DNA of 64,000 nucleotides from Sminthopsis crassicaudata (lineage: Eukaryota). The translations under genes were made by a program, and so were the position numbers. Shown here in pieces: positions 46,693-57,550 of this stretch. The stretch spans positions 291,725,765 through 291,789,764 of the forward strand of contig NC_133620.1 of the NCBI RefSeq assembly GCF_048593235.1, in the 5' to 3' direction. Every line of letters begins with the position of its first letter. Position 1 is the stretch's first letter. The notes under the pieces are model-generated. The model was not told where the DNA came from, did no database searches, and saw nothing but the letters and a program-made list of their open reading frames with translations.

Positions 46693-49600
46693 TGTAATGT
46701 TCTTCTCTAAAATATATTGTTCAGGGGGCAGCTAGGTGGCGCAGTGGATAGAGCACCAGCCATGAATTCAGGAGGACCGGAGTTCAAACCCGAGTCTCAG
46801 ACACTTAACACTTCCTAGCTGTGTGACCCTGGGCAAGTCACTTAACCCCAGCCTAAGGAAAAAAAAAAATTAAAAAAAAATAAATATATTGTTTTCTGGG
46901 AGCAGGTTTCTTGGGGGGCTTCTGGGAGCAGCCTTTGTTTCAGTTCAAAGTAATAATCACCTCAAATGCAGCCAGGAGTTAAAGTCCAAATCCATTACTG
47001 TCTCTTTCCAAATCTTATCTCCTTCACTTGGGACTCGGCTAGTTTTCTGGAGGACTTCCAGATCTTGGTTTCACACACAGGACAGTGTTCTCCACTTCTC
47101 TGTCTTCCTATGTTCTTCCCAACTTGTGAATCTCCACAAATAAATCCTGGCTCTGAATCTCCCGAAGTGCATCCTGGTTGAGGCTCCTAGCTTATATATG
47201 TTCTCTTAAAATTATGAATCTTGCAGAACTCTAGTAAATACTAAGTACATAATCATTGCCTCTATCAATTCCACTGACTTAGCAATCAGTAAGAATCCTA
47301 ATATCTTCCACTTTCTTTTGATTTAGAACATAGGTGGCCATGACCTCCCTGACTTCTCAAGAAGGTGAGAACCCCAAAAAGAAGGTGATCACTCCTTCCC
47401 TGACTGCTCAAAAAAGGAGTGAAAACACCATAAAAGGAGGTGATCATGCCCTCCCTGACTTCTCAGGAAGGGAGATGAAAACACCAAAAGAAATGGGAAA
47501 TCAAATCAGATTAGCGGGTTTCTGAAGGGGCTCACTCCTAAAACAGGTATACATAAATCCATCAATATGGGGGGTATTACACATAATTATAGAAATTACA
47601 TAAGCACATAGTAACATAACACAGGCTAGTCGTGCTGTAACAAATAACATGAATCAACATGAGGAATTATACAGGTCCATAGGTCCTAGAAATAGTCCAA
47701 AAGGAATCTATTGTCCATTAGTTCATGTGCCAGGAATCCATTAATTCCTGCAAGTTTTGAAGTCCTGCAATAGTCTCATCTTATGTTAGGGAATCCAATG
47801 ATTCCTGATGGTTTTCAAGTCCTGAAACAATCTCATTATCAGTCATGCTCTTTCAGCGTCAAATGTTTCTTAGATCTTCTCCTTTGTTTTGTTTCTCTTT
47901 TCCTGTCTCTCTCCAGGTGCTTGTTGCCACCCATCTGTTTCCTTCTCAATCTGTAGGAATATAAGCAAACCCTCTCTCCCAAGCGTTAACCTATCTAGTC
48001 CCTTCTCTTTACCACTTTCTAAATCTCTCCTCATCATCTGGCAATTACATTGGAGCTGTTTGCACTGGACACTGCCCTTCTGTTGGGTTAAAAAGCCTGT
48101 ATTCTCCCCAATTGTAATCCCTTTCTGCTCTCTGATTACTTTTTGGCTGATAGATCAGGTAATCCATTTCTGCCATGTGATTGCTTTTCAGCTGATAGAT
48201 CACATCAGAATCCTGAACTTCTTTGGGTGAAAAGTCAGCTGCCATTATGCCCCACCTGTCTTAGGGCTGGGCCCTGCCTCTCATTTCCCTGGGTCAATCT
48301 ACATACTGAGGCCCAGTGGAAGCCCTTGTGGCATTTTGGACATAGGGTTTTGGGTTTTATTCTCTTACCCTGTCCTCTCACTCCATCTCTTTGCCCACAC
48401 TGAGCTCTTAGATGTCCAACTTTTCCACATTGAAAACACTAACAAGTTTCTCTAGAAGTCCCTTGCCAAGAGGGACCCTGTCTTCCCATGTTCATCATAG
48501 TCTGCGTGTAATAAGCATTTGTGCCCACTGTGGCACAGCGTCTTATGATCTCCTCTAAAGGAACATCTTTATGTAGTCCCCATATAATTCTTCTGCAAAC
48601 CTCATTAGCATTTTTCTTAGCCAGTTGTCTGGTCATTATTTCTATAGCTGCAATGGTTCTTGTGACAGCTGTTTGCAGACGTACCGCAAAATTCACAAAG
48701 GGTTCATTGGGATCTTGCTCTATTTTTGTGAAGGCTTCCCCTTGACCTTTTTGTCCATGGAGGGAACCCCAAGCTTTTTGTTGCAGCAGTGGCAATCTGT
48801 TCATAAGCTGTTGTGAGGTAATTCATCTGTTCTGAATTCTCTCCATACTGGTCTTTATCTGCTAGTTGGTCAAAAGTGACTTGTACATTAACTCCTGTTT
48901 GCCTATTGGGTCTGACTTGAATCCTGCATAATTCATGATACTCCGAAAGCCACAACAAGTTTTGACCTTGCTATGGATTTCCAGTTACTAGGGGTTAAGA
49001 TTTCATAAGCCAAATTATCTAGTAACATTTTAACATAAGACGATGTAGCCCCATAAAGAGTGCAACTTTTTTTCAAATTCTTAATTTTTTCTAGATCAAA
49101 GGGAGTGCATCTTCTCCTTTGTTGACTTGAAAGGACAAGCTCTTCAATCACAGGGTATGCATCTATAAAATCACTTATATCCTCTCCTTCATTTTTTGCC
49201 TTAACTAAGGCTTTTTCTTTTTTTTTTTTTTTCTTTTTCTGAGGCTGGGGTTAAGTGACTTATCCAGAGCCACACAGCTAGGAAGTGTTAAGTGTCTGAA
49301 ACCAGATTTGAACTTGGGTCCTCCTGAATTCAGGGATGGTGCTCTATCCACTGTGCCACCTAGCTGCCCCAAACTAATGCTTTTTCTAATTTTGTCATAG
49401 GCTGCTTAACAGGCAATTCTGTTTGTGTCACTGCCTCTTCCCCTCCTCCTTCTTCCTCCACCCATGAAGGGTTAATTGAAGGAGGTAAGTCAGGGGGTTG
49501 GGAAATGCTCCTGTTGTGAAGTGCCACACTCAGAATTGTACTTAACTCCATTCTTAACTGATTCTTCATCCTTTTCACCTACTTTATTTGGCACCTTTAC

Positions 49601-50330
49601 CTCCTGCTCTTTCTTCTTTTTTCTTATTTTTTAAAGCCAGTTGTATTAAATTATATGTATAAAGTATATTTTTGGAAATTGAGTTTGGATTGGAATTGTA
49701 ATATTCACCTAGTTGCTCTCCTACTAATTTCTACTCATCTGGATTCAATTCTTTTTCCTTAGAGAACCAAGGAGATGTGTACTGTACAGTCTCTAAAAGT
49801 TCAGTGATCTGCTCCCAAATTATAATCAAACCTTGGCTTTTCATAAGTCTGAAAATGCTCTCTAAACATTTTCCTTGAATTGAAAAAGATGGCTGTTTCT
49901 AAACATCTGTCCCATTTTAGCTGAAATTCTATCTTAGCTCTTTAACAAAGTTACTCACCCTAATTTCTGGGTCATAGATGAAGGTTCTTGGTCCAACATT
50001 CAGGTACCAAAATGTAATATTCTCTTCTCTAAAATATATTGTTTTCTGGGAGCAAGTTTCTTGGGGGGCTTCTGGGAGCAACCTTAGTTTCAGCTCAAAG
50101 TAGTAATCACCTCAAATGCAGCCAGGAGTTAAAGTCCAAATCCTTTATTGTCTCCTTCAAAATCTCATCTCCTTCACTTGGGGCTTGGCTAGTTTTCTGG
50201 AGGCCTTCCGGATCTTGGTTTCAATGTTCTCCACAAGACAGCCTGCCACCACTTCTCTGTCTTCCTATGTTCTTCCCGACTTGTGAATCTCCTCAAATGA
50301 ATCCTGGCTCTGAATCTCCTAAAGTGCATC
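46693..50330 (-). mobile_element. Older class II ERV, gag retained and pro-pol deleted; 3' LTR 46693-47303, truncated 5' LTR ~50013-50330
   Basis: gag ATG GGA CAG at 49915; MHR IEQDPNEPFVNFAVRLQ; Zn knuckles CFQCGKVGHLRAQC and CPKCHKGFHWASVC; jumps to IN tail (RLFNPTEGQCPV); decayed PBS TGGTACCTGAATGTTGGAC at ~49991-50009; SINEs inserted at 46722-46880 (TSD AAATATATTGTT) and 49215-49370. Confidence 0.9.
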
Positions 50331-50402
50331 CCAATCTAGAACACTCAAACAGCATCAAGTAGTCTTTGCTGATAGTTAGGAGCCTTTGAGGAAAAAAAGA
50401 GG

Positions 50403-53950: not shown

Positions 53951-54605
53951 CCAAATCAGGAAAGATAGTTTTTCAAATGTCCTGTTGTTAAGGAGAAACA
54001 AGATTAGGGTTCACCTGGTCAGTGTCGGGTTTGGTGAAAGAATTTGCATACTGGGACAGCTAGGTGGCACAGTGGATAGAACATCAGCCCTGAAAGCAAG
54101 AATTTGACCCCAGACACTTAACACTTCCTAGCTATGTTGTTGCGAGCTGTCGTCTCCAGAAGCTGCTGGATCGCTCTCTGGGAAGAGATCTGCTGTGTCT
54201 ACTCAAATCTCTCAGACAGATTCTTCTTCCTGTAACGAACCGTTGTCTCCAGGCAGTTGCTGTTAACTCTTGTCCAAAGAAGTGACTTCCCTTCCTGCAG
54301 AGAGCCCCGTCAAGCCTGATGCAATTCAGAGTCTTCTTTTCTCTTGAATCCTGGCTCTGAATCTCCTCCAACTCTTATCCTTCTTCAGGCCGATCTGCTC
54401 TCTGCGCCCAGTGCTGTCTCTTTTTATCCTCCCAGAGAATGGGCGTGGGATAATGCAAAGGCTTCTGGGAAGAACCACCCCAGCCAATGAGCTTGCCCCC
54501 TCTATCAAGTCAACCTGAGTTCTCACCTTGTAATTGTCCAGAAAACCTGAATTCTCACCTTGTCACCATCCAGACAACCTCAGTTCTCACCTAGTAATCC
54601 CAACA

Positions 54606-54622
54606 TCTCCCCCTTTCTTTTG
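54606..54622 (-). other. 3' polypurine tract
   Basis: CAAAAGAAAGGGGGAGA abutting the 3' LTR TG. Confidence 0.9.
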
Positions 54623-54904: not shown

Positions 54905-56425
54905 TTAGATCTTCTCCTTTATTTTGAGGTCTTTCTCTTTTTCTGTCTCTCTCTGATGGACAAGGCGAATATGACTTGTTGGCACCCATCTGATTCCTTC
55001 TCCTGCTGAAGAAATACAAGCAAACCCTCTCCCCCAGGCAGTTAACCTATCTGGTCCCTTCCATTCACCACTTTCTGGATCTCTCCACATCACCTGGCTA
55101 TTATCTAAGGACAGTGGAGATGCTCTCACTGGACACTGCCCTTCTGGTGGGTTATAAAACCTGTCTGCTGGAGCCAGCGCATCTTTGTCAAAAATTAGAA
55201 AATTAATGGTATAGAGAACTAAATTTAGAAGTTCCCTAGGGCTACCTGTGGCTCCCCCTTTCTTTTGTTTTTGGAGGAGTGTCTTAATATCTCTGTTTCT
55301 TCTCTCTACTATTGCCTGCCCTTGAGGATTAAAGGGTATGCCCGTGGTATGTAAAATCTTATACTGTGCACAAAAGTGTGTAAAATGTTTGGACGTATAT
55401 GCAGGTCCATTGTCTGTTTTTATTGCTTGTGGCACACCCATAATTGCAAAAGCTTGTATAAGGAATTCAGTGACCACTCGGGCTGTCTCTTTTGCTGCTG
55501 GCATTGCAAATGTGAATCCTGAAAAGGTGTCTACCACGACATGAATAAAAGATAGACGACCAAAAGATTTATAATGGGTCACATCCATTTGCCAGATTTC
55601 ATTGGGTCTCAAACCACGAGGATTCTTCCCTGGAGGGAGTGTAGGAGCATGGAAAGGAAGACAAGCTGTACAGTTTTTTACTATGCTCCTAGCTTCCTCT
55701 CTTGTGATTCCAAATTGTAAACGTAAAGCTCGAGCAGCCTGATGATATTTAGAATGAGATTCTTGTGCTTCCTGAAATAAAGGACTACTGGCTAACATGG
55801 TTAGAAGGCTATCTGCCTTTGAATTTCCATCAAAAATGGGACCTGGAAGTCCACTATGTGAGTGGACATGCAAGATATAAATCTTGCCTGGATGTTTTCT
55901 CACTTGCTCTTGAAGTTCCTTAAAGAGCTGATAAATATTGGAGGCTGCAAATTTTATTTGGGCTGTGGCAATTCTTTGTACTACACCTACTGAATAGGCT
56001 GAATCAGTAATTATATTTACGTCTCCTGGGTAATAAGTGAGAGCTAGCATGATAGCAAATAATTCATTCTGTTGAGTGGATTGAAAAGGAGTCCTGATTA
56101 CTCTCTTTATGGTTAAATCATGAGAGTATATGGCACAAATATTTTCTTTGGAGGCATCTGTAAAGATTGTTGGTCCTTTAAGAGGAACCTTAGAAACCTT
56201 TTCTTCAAAAATCCATCGCCAATTATGTAGTAGCCGGGTAATCTTTAATGGAGATCCATGTGCAAAATTTGGAGCGGTGGCCAATAAAATTTGCCATTCT
56301 GGGATGTTCTCACAGCATACATTAATCTGTGCGTTAGTATAGAATGTGTATATTTTTTCAGGACTTATCCCAGATAATTGTGTTACTCTCTTAATAGCCT
56401 TTAATAAAATCCTAGCCACAAGCAC
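54905..56425 (-). CDS. Retroviral pol fragment: RT connection, RNase H and complete integrase; open frame
   Basis: RNase H FTDAS/NELFA/TDSAY/NSKAD; IN HHCC (HSKYH...CTAC), WQMDVTH, KTDNGPAY and D(35)E to IVERRN; C-terminal WKGPDRLTAWGRG. The listed start is GTG; the first in-frame ATG is at 56050 (381 aa). Confidence 0.9.
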   Translation of the reverse strand: MLVARILLKAIKRVTQLSGISPEKIYTFYTNAQINVCCENIPEWQILLATAPNFAHGSPLKITRLLHNWRWIFEEKVSKVPLKGPTIFTDASKENICAIYSHDLTIKRVIRTPFQSTQQNELFAIMLALTYYPGDVNIITDSAYSVGVVQRIATAQIKFAASNIYQLFKELQEQVRKHPGKIYILHVHSHSGLPGPIFDGNSKADSLLTMLASSPLFQEAQESHSKYHQAARALRLQFGITREEARSIVKNCTACLPFHAPTLPPGKNPRGLRPNEIWQMDVTHYKSFGRLSFIHVVVDTFSGFTFAMPAAKETARVVTEFLIQAFAIMGVPQAIKTDNGPAYTSKHFTHFCAQYKILHTTGIPFNPQGQAIVERRNRDIKTLLQKQKKGGATGSPRELLNLVLYTINFLIFDKDALAPADRFYNPPEGQCPVRASPLSLDNSQVMWRDPESGEWKGPDRLTAWGRGFACISSAGEGIRWVPTSHIRLVHQRETEKEKDLKIKEKI

Positions 56426-56444
56426 TGGAATCAGGACTGTGTCT

Positions 56445-56462
56445 GTCCCTGTTCGGGCGCCA
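56445..56462 (-). other. Primer-binding site 2, tRNA-Lys3 (perfect 18-mer)
   Basis: TGGCGCCCGAACAGGGAC, identical to the HIV-1/MMTV-type Lys3 PBS. Confidence 0.95.
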
Positions 56463-56513
56463 AATTGCGAAGGTCTGGTCTAGCTCTTCTTGTCAGGATA
56501 AGCAAAAGTCCTT

Positions 56514-56532
56514 GCCCCACGTGTGGACGCCA
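56514..56532 (-). other. Primer-binding site 1, tRNA-Lys1,2-like (imperfect)
   Basis: TGGCGTCCACACGTGGGGC two bases after the LTR, versus canonical TGGCGCCCAACGTGGGGC (one mismatch, one insertion). Confidence 0.9.
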
Positions 56533-57550
56533 ATTGTTGCGAGCTGTCGTCTCCAGAAGCTGCTGGATCGCTCTCTGGGAAGAGATCTGCTGTGTCTACT
56601 CAAATCTCTCAGACAGATTCTTCTTCCTGTAACGAACCGTTGTCTCCAGGCAGTTGCTGTTAACTCTTGTCCAAAGAAGTGACTTCCCTTCCTGCAGAGA
56701 GCCCCGTCAAGCCTGATGCAATTCAGAGTCTTCTTTTCTCTTGAATCCTGGCTCTGAATCTCCTCCAACTCTTATCCTTCTTCAGGCCGATCTGCTCTCT
56801 GCGCCCAGTGCTGTCTCTTTTTATCCTCCCAGAGAATGGGCGTGGGATAATGCAAAGGCTTCTGGGAAGAACCACCCCAGCCAATGAGCTTGCCCCCTCT
56901 ATCAAGTCAACCTGAGTTCTCACCTTGTAATTGTCCAGAAAACCTGAATTCTCACCTTGTCACCATCCAGACAACCTCAGTTCTCACCTAGTAATCCCAA
57001 CACTATGTGATTCTGGGTAAATCTCCAATTGCCTCAGAAAAAAAAAAAAAAAAAAAAAAGAATTTGCACACTCAGTCTCCAAGTTAAAAGACAAAGATTT
57101 ACAGCACTGCTTGATAGTGGGTTATTGAAGGGAAATCTAGCTAAGACGAATCTAGAAGATAATTTTGCAGGAAAAAGAAACAAAGATTAGATTGATATGC
57201 TAATATTATGATTTAGAGGTACAATTGCAGAGTAGTAGGAGTAGTGTAGTTCTCATCATTTCGTTCTACAAGTTAGGAACCAACTGAATCAGTATTAAAT
57301 TACTACTATTGGCCAGTGTTGTTTGTGGTACTCCCAAGGCCAGCTAGCCTTCTCAGGCCTTGCAACTTTTTCAACTTCATCACTGTACAAGTTATATTGG
57401 TATTTTTCAATTTTTCTTCAATCAACCAAGAACCAATTGATTATGTTCTAATCACTGTATCCAACACTAGGAATACAAAAACAAAATGGGCACTTCCCAT
57501 CCTTAAGGAACTTAACATTCTAATGGTGGAAAAAAGTGTGTGTGTATGTG

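Follow-up and report, generated by a model that had tools for sequence, protein, structure and literature searches.

The textbook retrovirus has one primer-binding site (PBS), and that site fixes where its long terminal repeat (LTR) ends. Co-packaged retroelements can recombine, as in the marsupial case of recKoRV, in which some copies carry an unrelated element in place of the internal region. Laboratory retroviruses with two PBSs, reportedly those of Voronin and Pathak in 2004 (J Virol) and of Li et al. in 1997 (Virology), are said to show dual initiation and deletion of the region between the sites. Among natural elements, the endogenous betaretrovirus SERV carries Lys3 or Lys1,2 sites, and many of its Lys1,2 sites hold an extra nucleotide that its authors, in the available part of their report, read as escape from tRNA fragments (PMC8775094). 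Drosophila Gypsy has two tRNA-Lys binding sites in the RNA of one endogenous retrovirus (available part of PMC1635307).

Here we describe an element on the minus strand of a 64-kb stretch of the Sminthopsis crassicaudata genome (contig NC_133620.1; 'the window' is this whole stretch of 64,000 nt), in which two PBSs for different tRNA-Lys species stand in tandem. An earlier reading of the same DNA, hereafter the original prediction, had taken the pair for the scar of a recombination between two viruses. Comparison with other genomic copies points instead to a family with two tandem tRNA-Lys sites that very probably starts reverse transcription at either of them, the window copy being one internally deleted, envelope-less, beta-like member. 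The pair is more interesting as a family mechanism than as a recombination scar.

Two primer sites and two LTR ends

The features of the window copy on which the argument turns are as follows.

57003..57008, minus strand: target-site duplication ACATAG, upstream copy, within what is presumably a host short interspersed element (SINE) interrupted by the insertion; partner at 54132-54137
56535..57002, minus strand: 5' LTR, short form, 468 nt, TG...CA, ending at the first CA; identical to the 3' LTR
56514..56532, minus strand: PBS1, 19 nt, TGGCGTCCACACGTGGGGC, a variant tRNA-Lys(CUU) site 2 nt (AT) past the first CA; tRNA-Lys(CUU) relics at the same position in other copies
56466..56513, minus strand: spacer, 48 nt including its terminal CA (second integrase end); a shortened U5 (unique 5' region) end of an older LTR family
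56445..56462, minus strand: PBS2, an exact tRNA-Lys(UUU)/Lys3 18-mer 3 nt (ATT) past the second CA; tRNA-Lys(UUU) relics at the same position in other copies
54138..54605, minus strand: 3' LTR, short form, identical in sequence to the 5' LTR, without PBS1 and spacer
54132..54137, minus strand: target-site duplication ACATAG, downstream copy, from the sequence

The predicted tandem of a Lys1,2-like and a Lys3 site on the minus strand held base for base, and the spacer, put at about 47 nt, measures 48 nt with its terminal CA. The PBS2 18-mer is the Lys3 site as printed in the available part of PMC8775094. PBS-like 18-mers occur once each in the 64-kb window, even at three mismatches, and reversed-pattern controls in the genome searches gave no matches; the tandem pair is not a chance match. 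Nor is it private to this copy. When the assembly (3.24 Gb, 8 contigs) was searched, a first search scored 40 matches among 1,817 candidates, with the same layout in 29 of the 30 loci examined, window included. The exact pattern of spacer plus PBS2 marks 2,457 5' ends genome-wide, and PBS1 lay upstream of it in 100 of 100 sampled 5' ends (the first 100 exact-pattern 5' ends, contig C1; the long ends discussed below are the first 90). The two-PBS leader is a family trait, kept across several LTR types and three spacer lengths, older subfamilies included. A search for triple-PBS forms gave nine matches, namely eight older LTR types with the dual layout and one rearranged young copy, and no true triplication.

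We propose that the RNA of the family would read repeat (R)-U5-PBS1-spacer-PBS2-leader, whichever LTR form it came from. Priming by tRNA-Lys(CUU) at PBS1 would yield short LTRs that end at the first CA, and priming by tRNA-Lys(UUU) at PBS2 would copy the spacer and PBS1 into strong-stop DNA, giving LTRs about 68 nt longer whose end is the second CA. Since either product would again transcribe a two-site RNA, the trait would be inherited.

Both kinds of end are present in the genome. After removal of 11 sampled elements without a 3' LTR and 2 tandem 5' ends, 87 proviruses remained, of which 80 have a 3' LTR ending at the first CA and 7 (8%, interval 3-16%) have one that takes in PBS1 and spacer and ends at the second CA; a script flagged 6-bp duplications in 56 of the 80 and 5 of the 7. 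These seven are the extended LTRs that the original prediction had suggested looking for. Genome-wide, the second CA is followed by a non-PBS flank at 398 places, as against 3,835 for the first CA, older subfamilies being counted in. The 90 sampled long ends comprised 35 solo LTRs whose 6-bp duplication directly abuts the second CA, 33 3' LTRs, which sit behind a polypurine tract, 4 5' LTRs and 18 unresolved ends; a duplication at the first CA was seen in none of the 90, and PBS1 was present in 89. In each of two proviruses (L153 and L203), the long 3' LTR repeats a private PBS1 mutation of the 5' end, which is what copying of PBS1 from RNA as part of U5 would produce. On the leader/gag tree, the seven long forms take 7 changes (6.8 in shuffles), and this scatter marks the long LTR as an outcome and not a subfamily; quick trees were used throughout, with 3 long-branch rows of 106 dropped.

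Taken together, these ends indicate that both PBSs prime and that the family makes two LTR lengths, PBS1 probably being used about nine times in ten. Short outcomes dominate with the variant PBS1 (30 to 2) and with the canonical one (50 to 5). A likely explanation for the dominance of PBS1, even where imperfect, is that the upstream primer would finish first and its RNase H would destroy the template of the downstream primer. In the window copy, the 3' LTR ends at the first CA without PBS1 or spacer and is bounded by the duplication, which places the priming of its minus strand at the imperfect PBS1, as the original prediction had deduced; tRNA-Lys(CUU) relics occur at this position in other copies.

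tRNA relics at the LTR ends

The genome has 198 places at which the antisense of a tRNA-Lys 3' end, CCA included, continues beyond the PBS; the first 30 of these were read. Nine relics lie at the first CA of the family, eight of tRNA-Lys(CUU) and one with a Lys(UUU) body; several of the CUU relics are full length and are called tRNA-Lys(CUU) by ARAGORN, the full copies being attached 2 nt past the first CA. Eleven relics lie at the second CA of dual elements, nine of Lys(UUU), two of which are duplicates, and two of Lys(CUU). Relic identity goes with end position (Fisher p 0.005, duplicate dropped), and the relics indicate cross-priming in both directions at a low rate.

In six of the nine first-CA relics, A or C lies opposite tRNA position 58, the stop site of 1-methyladenosine (m1A; available part of PMC8599865), and a base other than T there would point to mature, modified tRNA as the template. 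The UUU relics end after 34-40 nt, near modified position 37, a soft bound as the reference itself is 40 nt. Among relics L234, L258 and L264-L293, the primer was read past position 58, in some at full length, with T, A or C opposite. Loci L280 and L291 hold a full antisense tRNA-Lys(CUU) in place of the spacer, landing on the last 7-8 nt of the spacer, which are complementary to the tRNA 5' end. In the older dual element L270, the first position holds a site of Lys3 type, which shows that neither position is tied to one primer.

Loss of the spacer and upkeep of the pair

The first 8 nt are common to both sites. If both fired, a plus strand copied from one primer could pair with these 8 nt of the other site, and the spacer would drop out. 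Lys1,2 and Lys3 sites should then be left behind in roughly equal numbers, for example where a strand copied from tRNA-Lys(CUU) lies at PBS2 and the mismatch is resolved either way. Spacer-less copies, with a short LTR, one PBS and the family leader, number 44: 25 with a canonical Lys1,2 site, 18 with a Lys3 site and one patchwork, or 18, 16 and 1 after clustered copies are collapsed by position. The exact PBS1 variant is in none of the 44. An origin in one clade is rejected by the tree (18 rows, p-AU 1.5e-7); three copies do form a supported small clade (L363, L364 and L367), and the spacer-less labels take 13 changes, the shuffle minimum being 14, a slight clustering. Twenty of the 44 were read at full length and 11 of these have a duplication, 10 with short 3' LTRs and 1 with a long one. 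The spacer-less copies fit what dual initiation would predict. In addition, 8 of the 100 sampled 5' ends terminate in the 3' end of PBS2 or right at it, the pattern expected if plus-strand transfer had gone wrong after Lys(UUU) priming.

These mechanics are compatible with more than one account of why the pair is maintained. One explanation, which we consider quite possible, is that both sites prime and the second is kept by mere descent from a few source copies, with no benefit; it concerns maintenance only. The small clade and the clustered labels suggest that spacer-less copies can replicate, and the spacer tolerated a shortening of 20 nt, as neutrality would allow, yet loss is recurrent and one-way while spacer-less forms remain at about 1.5-2% (<2%) of 5' ends, and the layout persists over LTR types and three spacer lengths. 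Another possibility, which we offer tentatively and hold to be rather doubtful, is a selected two-primer device: an imperfect PBS1 would evade silencing by tRNA fragments or KRAB zinc-finger proteins and yet prime, PBS2 would recopy PBS1 faithfully and serve as a backup, the primer could be switched in one cycle, and the whole may have aided the takeover of dasyurid genomes.

The family, the window copy and the origin of the spacer

Family members fall into two size classes. Full-length elements measure about 6.4 kb and carry gag-pro and pol frames but lack env; the more frequent elements, to which most copies belong, are about 3.4 kb long and hold gag alone, in an open frame of about 600 codons. 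LTR pairs are 100% identical in 25 of 87 proviruses and at least 99% identical in 61 of 87, and pairs so nearly identical mark the family as young. The LTR, 468 nt in the window, is about 375-480 nt in other young copies. Features of a class II (beta-like) endogenous retrovirus (ERV) are present, namely TG...CA LTRs, a tRNA-Lys PBS, a polypurine tract and a 6-bp target duplication, and the domains found are Gag_p10, Gag_p24, zf-CCHC_5, RVP, RVT_1, RVT_thumb, RNase_H, Integrase_Zn, rve and IN_DBD_C. The best solved-structure match is 7sr6, the HERV-K reverse transcriptase (RT). In the full-length class (among L111-L210), gag and protease share one stop-free frame of about 795 codons, with no match to dUTPase; in typical betaretroviruses, unlike here, gag and pro are frameshifted.

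The window element is 2.87 kb long, on the minus strand and bounded by the 6-bp duplication. Between its PBS2 and its 3' LTR lie three further features.

56423..56444, minus strand: remnant of the family leader, 22 nt, the last 6 nt of which (CCAGTG) are the deletion microhomology; by comparison with a full-length copy
54905..56422, minus strand: RNase H and integrase portion (3' part) of pol, of family origin; gag, pro and RT absent; Pfam PF00075, PF02022, PF00665 and PF00552, 98.8% nucleotide identity to a full-length family copy
54606..54622, minus strand: polypurine tract, from the sequence

The open frame of the pol remnant encodes RNase H and three integrase domains. It had been ascribed to another virus, an origin contradicted by its 98.8% identity to the pol of the family itself, and it adjoins the leader through an internal deletion: CCAGTG is found at both deletion ends in a full-length copy, about 3.6 kb apart, and leader and pol join there in the window copy. 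The window copy is a deletion derivative, formed by a private loss of about 3.6 kb at a 6-nt microhomology, its pol coming from the family. Derivatives with only 3' pol behind the leader or PBS2 have arisen several times independently (L002, L111, L174, L182, L207, L210 and the window copy), and the breakpoint of the window copy is no more than about 20 nt from the joint of PBS2 and pol in L002.

An older, abundant LTR family, reached through a tRNA relic, has a homologue of the spacer at its U5 end, with no PBS before it, in 30 of 30 loci (2,021 candidates). The spacer does derive, as had been supposed, from the U5 end of another LTR family; the Lys3 PBS expected to follow it in the donor was not borne out, the donor site being Lys1,2-like. 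Thirty 5' ends of donor type comprised 22 with a single Lys1,2-like PBS and 8 old dual elements. Spacers of the old dual elements match the donor U5 at a median of 0.87, the same as donor with donor, later 69-nt spacers match it at 0.77, and 20 nt of the spacer were lost on the way from older subfamilies to young ones; on this comparison, the 48-nt spacer of young copies is a deletion form. Gag identity to the young family is about 66-74% for donor-type elements and 83-85% for old dual ones, and the greater distance of the donor gag suggests that only the U5 patch is foreign. The dual layout probably arose once, long ago, through a U5 patch of about 68 nt from a co-packaged older element, and is now fixed. 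The joint of the patch coincides precisely with the 3' end of the 18-nt PBS, as though plus-strand transfer between co-packaged RNAs had gone astray. In the old copy L324 both sites are of Lys1,2 type, and PBS2 may therefore have become a Lys3 site only later. A young donor family with the spacer but without PBS1 was also considered; the 14 matches were all rearranged or truncated family copies.

The original prediction envisaged a private or recent chimera of the recKoRV kind, with LTR and PBS1 from one virus, U5, PBS2 and pol from another, and PBS2 as a passenger. The foreign U5 end of the spacer and its joint at the 3' end of PBS1 speak for it. However, both sites are in 100 of 100 sampled copies, full-length ones and older subfamilies with other LTR types included, pol is the family's own, donor-type gag is more distant (about 66-74%) than that of old dual elements (83-85%), the donor PBS is Lys1,2-like, and PBS2, as the long LTR ends and tRNA-Lys(UUU) relics attest, is functional in priming, a point that the prediction had missed. 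Full-length members with both sites are an outcome that the prediction itself had named as its refutation; in this form the chimera is refuted, and as an account of the window copy it is very improbable; it survives only as an ancient 68-nt patch. It is scarcely credible that the spacer descends from the tRNA-Lys(CUU) primer by read-through copying and decay. In favour of this idea, the 3' part of the spacer looks like the tRNA 5' end in antisense, L280 and L291 hold a full tRNA copy in its stead, and five older spacers give shuffle p 0.006-0.06. Against it, the young spacer gives p 0.25, the whole spacer scores 33 with the donor U5 (shuffle maximum -10), a far better match, and the donor U5 has no PBS before it; the tRNA is refuted as the direct source. 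The 9-nt complementarity between spacer and tRNA may be an older U5-primer contact.

Elsewhere in the window, at 46882-50362 on the minus strand, lies an older relative with LTRs about 93% alike, a broken gag and a single decayed PBS 3 nt past the LTR end, without a spacer. The LTR has an internal look-alike of its own U5 end at 56628-56650 (minus strand), about 95 nt upstream of the first CA, and contigs from sequencing runs have joints near 56631. AATAAA was not seen in the window LTR (56535-57002, minus strand), the sole candidate being GATAAAAAG near 56827. The window stretch was present in 20 of 23 sequencing-run rows, all from one organism, with no RNA run among those listed. The predicted RNA fold of U5-PBS1-spacer-PBS2 was no better than shuffles (z 0.39).

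The imperfect first site

PBS1 is canonical-like in 64 of the 100 sampled 5' ends, the form that the original prediction had proposed seeking in other copies, and variant in 36. A variant tRNA gene as the source of PBS1 gave 0 matches at 1 mismatch with one pattern, a more divergent gene being possible. Forerunners of 20 nt are found in older subfamilies, and the variant is accordingly old. Its share is 30 of 80 in short-LTR proviruses and 34 of 65 in resolved long ends (Fisher p 0.09), and variant and canonical forms are mixed on the tree much as in shuffles (26 changes vs 27.6). The variant may persist through a repair that favours the RNA-derived strand or through selection that favours the variant itself.

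These features could also be read to mean that PBS2 alone primes, the true LTR being the long one with a dead PBS in its U5, and the short ends arising by integrase action at an internal CA or by later deletion. PBS2 is perfect in the window, PBS1 is imperfect in 36 of 100 ends, and no tRNA gene matches the variant at 1 mismatch. We nevertheless find this most improbable, because short ends outnumber long ones by about 9 to 1 and have clean duplications, full tRNA-Lys(CUU) copies are attached 2 nt past the first CA, and the canonical Lys1,2 18-mer of spacer-less copies is best explained as copied from the tRNA.

Discussion

Priming at either of two tandem sites accounts for the two LTR ends, the relics at each and the spacer-less copies, and several points weigh against it. 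The case for dual priming is built wholly on genomic fossils rather than on complementary DNA (cDNA) intermediates or primers. Both samples come from one chromosome, include a few segmental duplicates and are anchored on exact motifs, so that old or decayed copies are under-counted. For 24 of the 80 proviruses scored as short, the script flagged no duplication, and in a few the two LTRs may not belong together. The UUU relics fall below the length that ARAGORN can call; they are identified by the PBS 18-mer, the T-arm hairpin and the known tRNA sequence. Correction of the variant PBS1 by the tRNA is weaker than half, in the predicted direction but not significant. Spacer-less L356 has a long 3' LTR, which a simple same-RNA model does not give, and a deletion in the DNA between the shared 8-nt stretches could likewise give rise to spacer-less copies of Lys3 type. 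The other parent of the patch, with the same LTR type, one PBS and its own leader, was not found in our searches. The order of events in the particle, the reason why PBS1 wins, the formation of the patch and any selection that keeps it are what we infer from these patterns.

The family has left thousands of dated outcomes of two-site priming. Counts on these sequences can tell which of the primers prevails, how frequently the two fire together, which strand of a mismatched PBS is retained after integration and by what route Lys1,2 can give way to Lys3 in one cycle (cf. SERV); the spacer-less copies show a one-step route between the two primer sites. The relics at LTR ends are a fossil record of primer read-through and primer modification in germline cells. 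In this family, likely the commonest ERV of dasyurids, the LTR boundary takes two values, which affects annotation, counts of solo LTRs and LTR dating. Roughly 500 long LTR ends spread a PBS motif through the genome, and the PBS motif is a known silencing target in other mammals.

By description, the family is probably marsupial endogenous betaretrovirus 3 (MEBrv 3; PMC11334065). In the available part of that report, MEBrv 3, like the family here, is an envelope-less gag-pro-pol element with near-identical LTRs that is highly abundant in dasyurid genomes, and its representative LTR is 469 nt, as against 468 nt here; its element length is about 7.3 kb, whereas the full-length class here is about 6.4 kb, and a degraded env immunosuppressive domain is described after pol (section 10). 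The available main text of PMC11334065 does not mention PBS or tRNA, nor its available supplement text PBS, primer or tRNA. A natural family with two tandem working PBSs was not found in the literature searched, the longest listings having been viewed in part and most subscription papers, as well as Repbase and Dfam, lying outside it. As far as we found, dual priming from two PBSs is known only from laboratory viruses.

The described systems each share something with the present one. SERV, in the available part of PMC8775094, has one PBS per provirus, whereas here a tandem pair stands in one leader. Gypsy, in the available part of PMC1635307, uses one tRNA species, with sites at the 5' and 3' ends of its genome, only the 5' one being needed for cDNA, and it has no alternative LTR ends; the present family, with two tRNAs, tandem 5' sites and two LTR ends, does not have a bipartite PBS of the Gypsy/Ty3 type. 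It differs from recKoRV in that its genes are its own, about 68 nt of U5 alone are foreign and the trait is in 100 of 100 copies. The family works like the laboratory two-PBS genomes, which reportedly have two working sites in one leader, dual initiation and loss of the region between the sites; those cases, however, were engineered vectors or one cultured mutant, whereas here a natural germline family of thousands of copies has two integrase-competent U5 ends and two LTR lengths.

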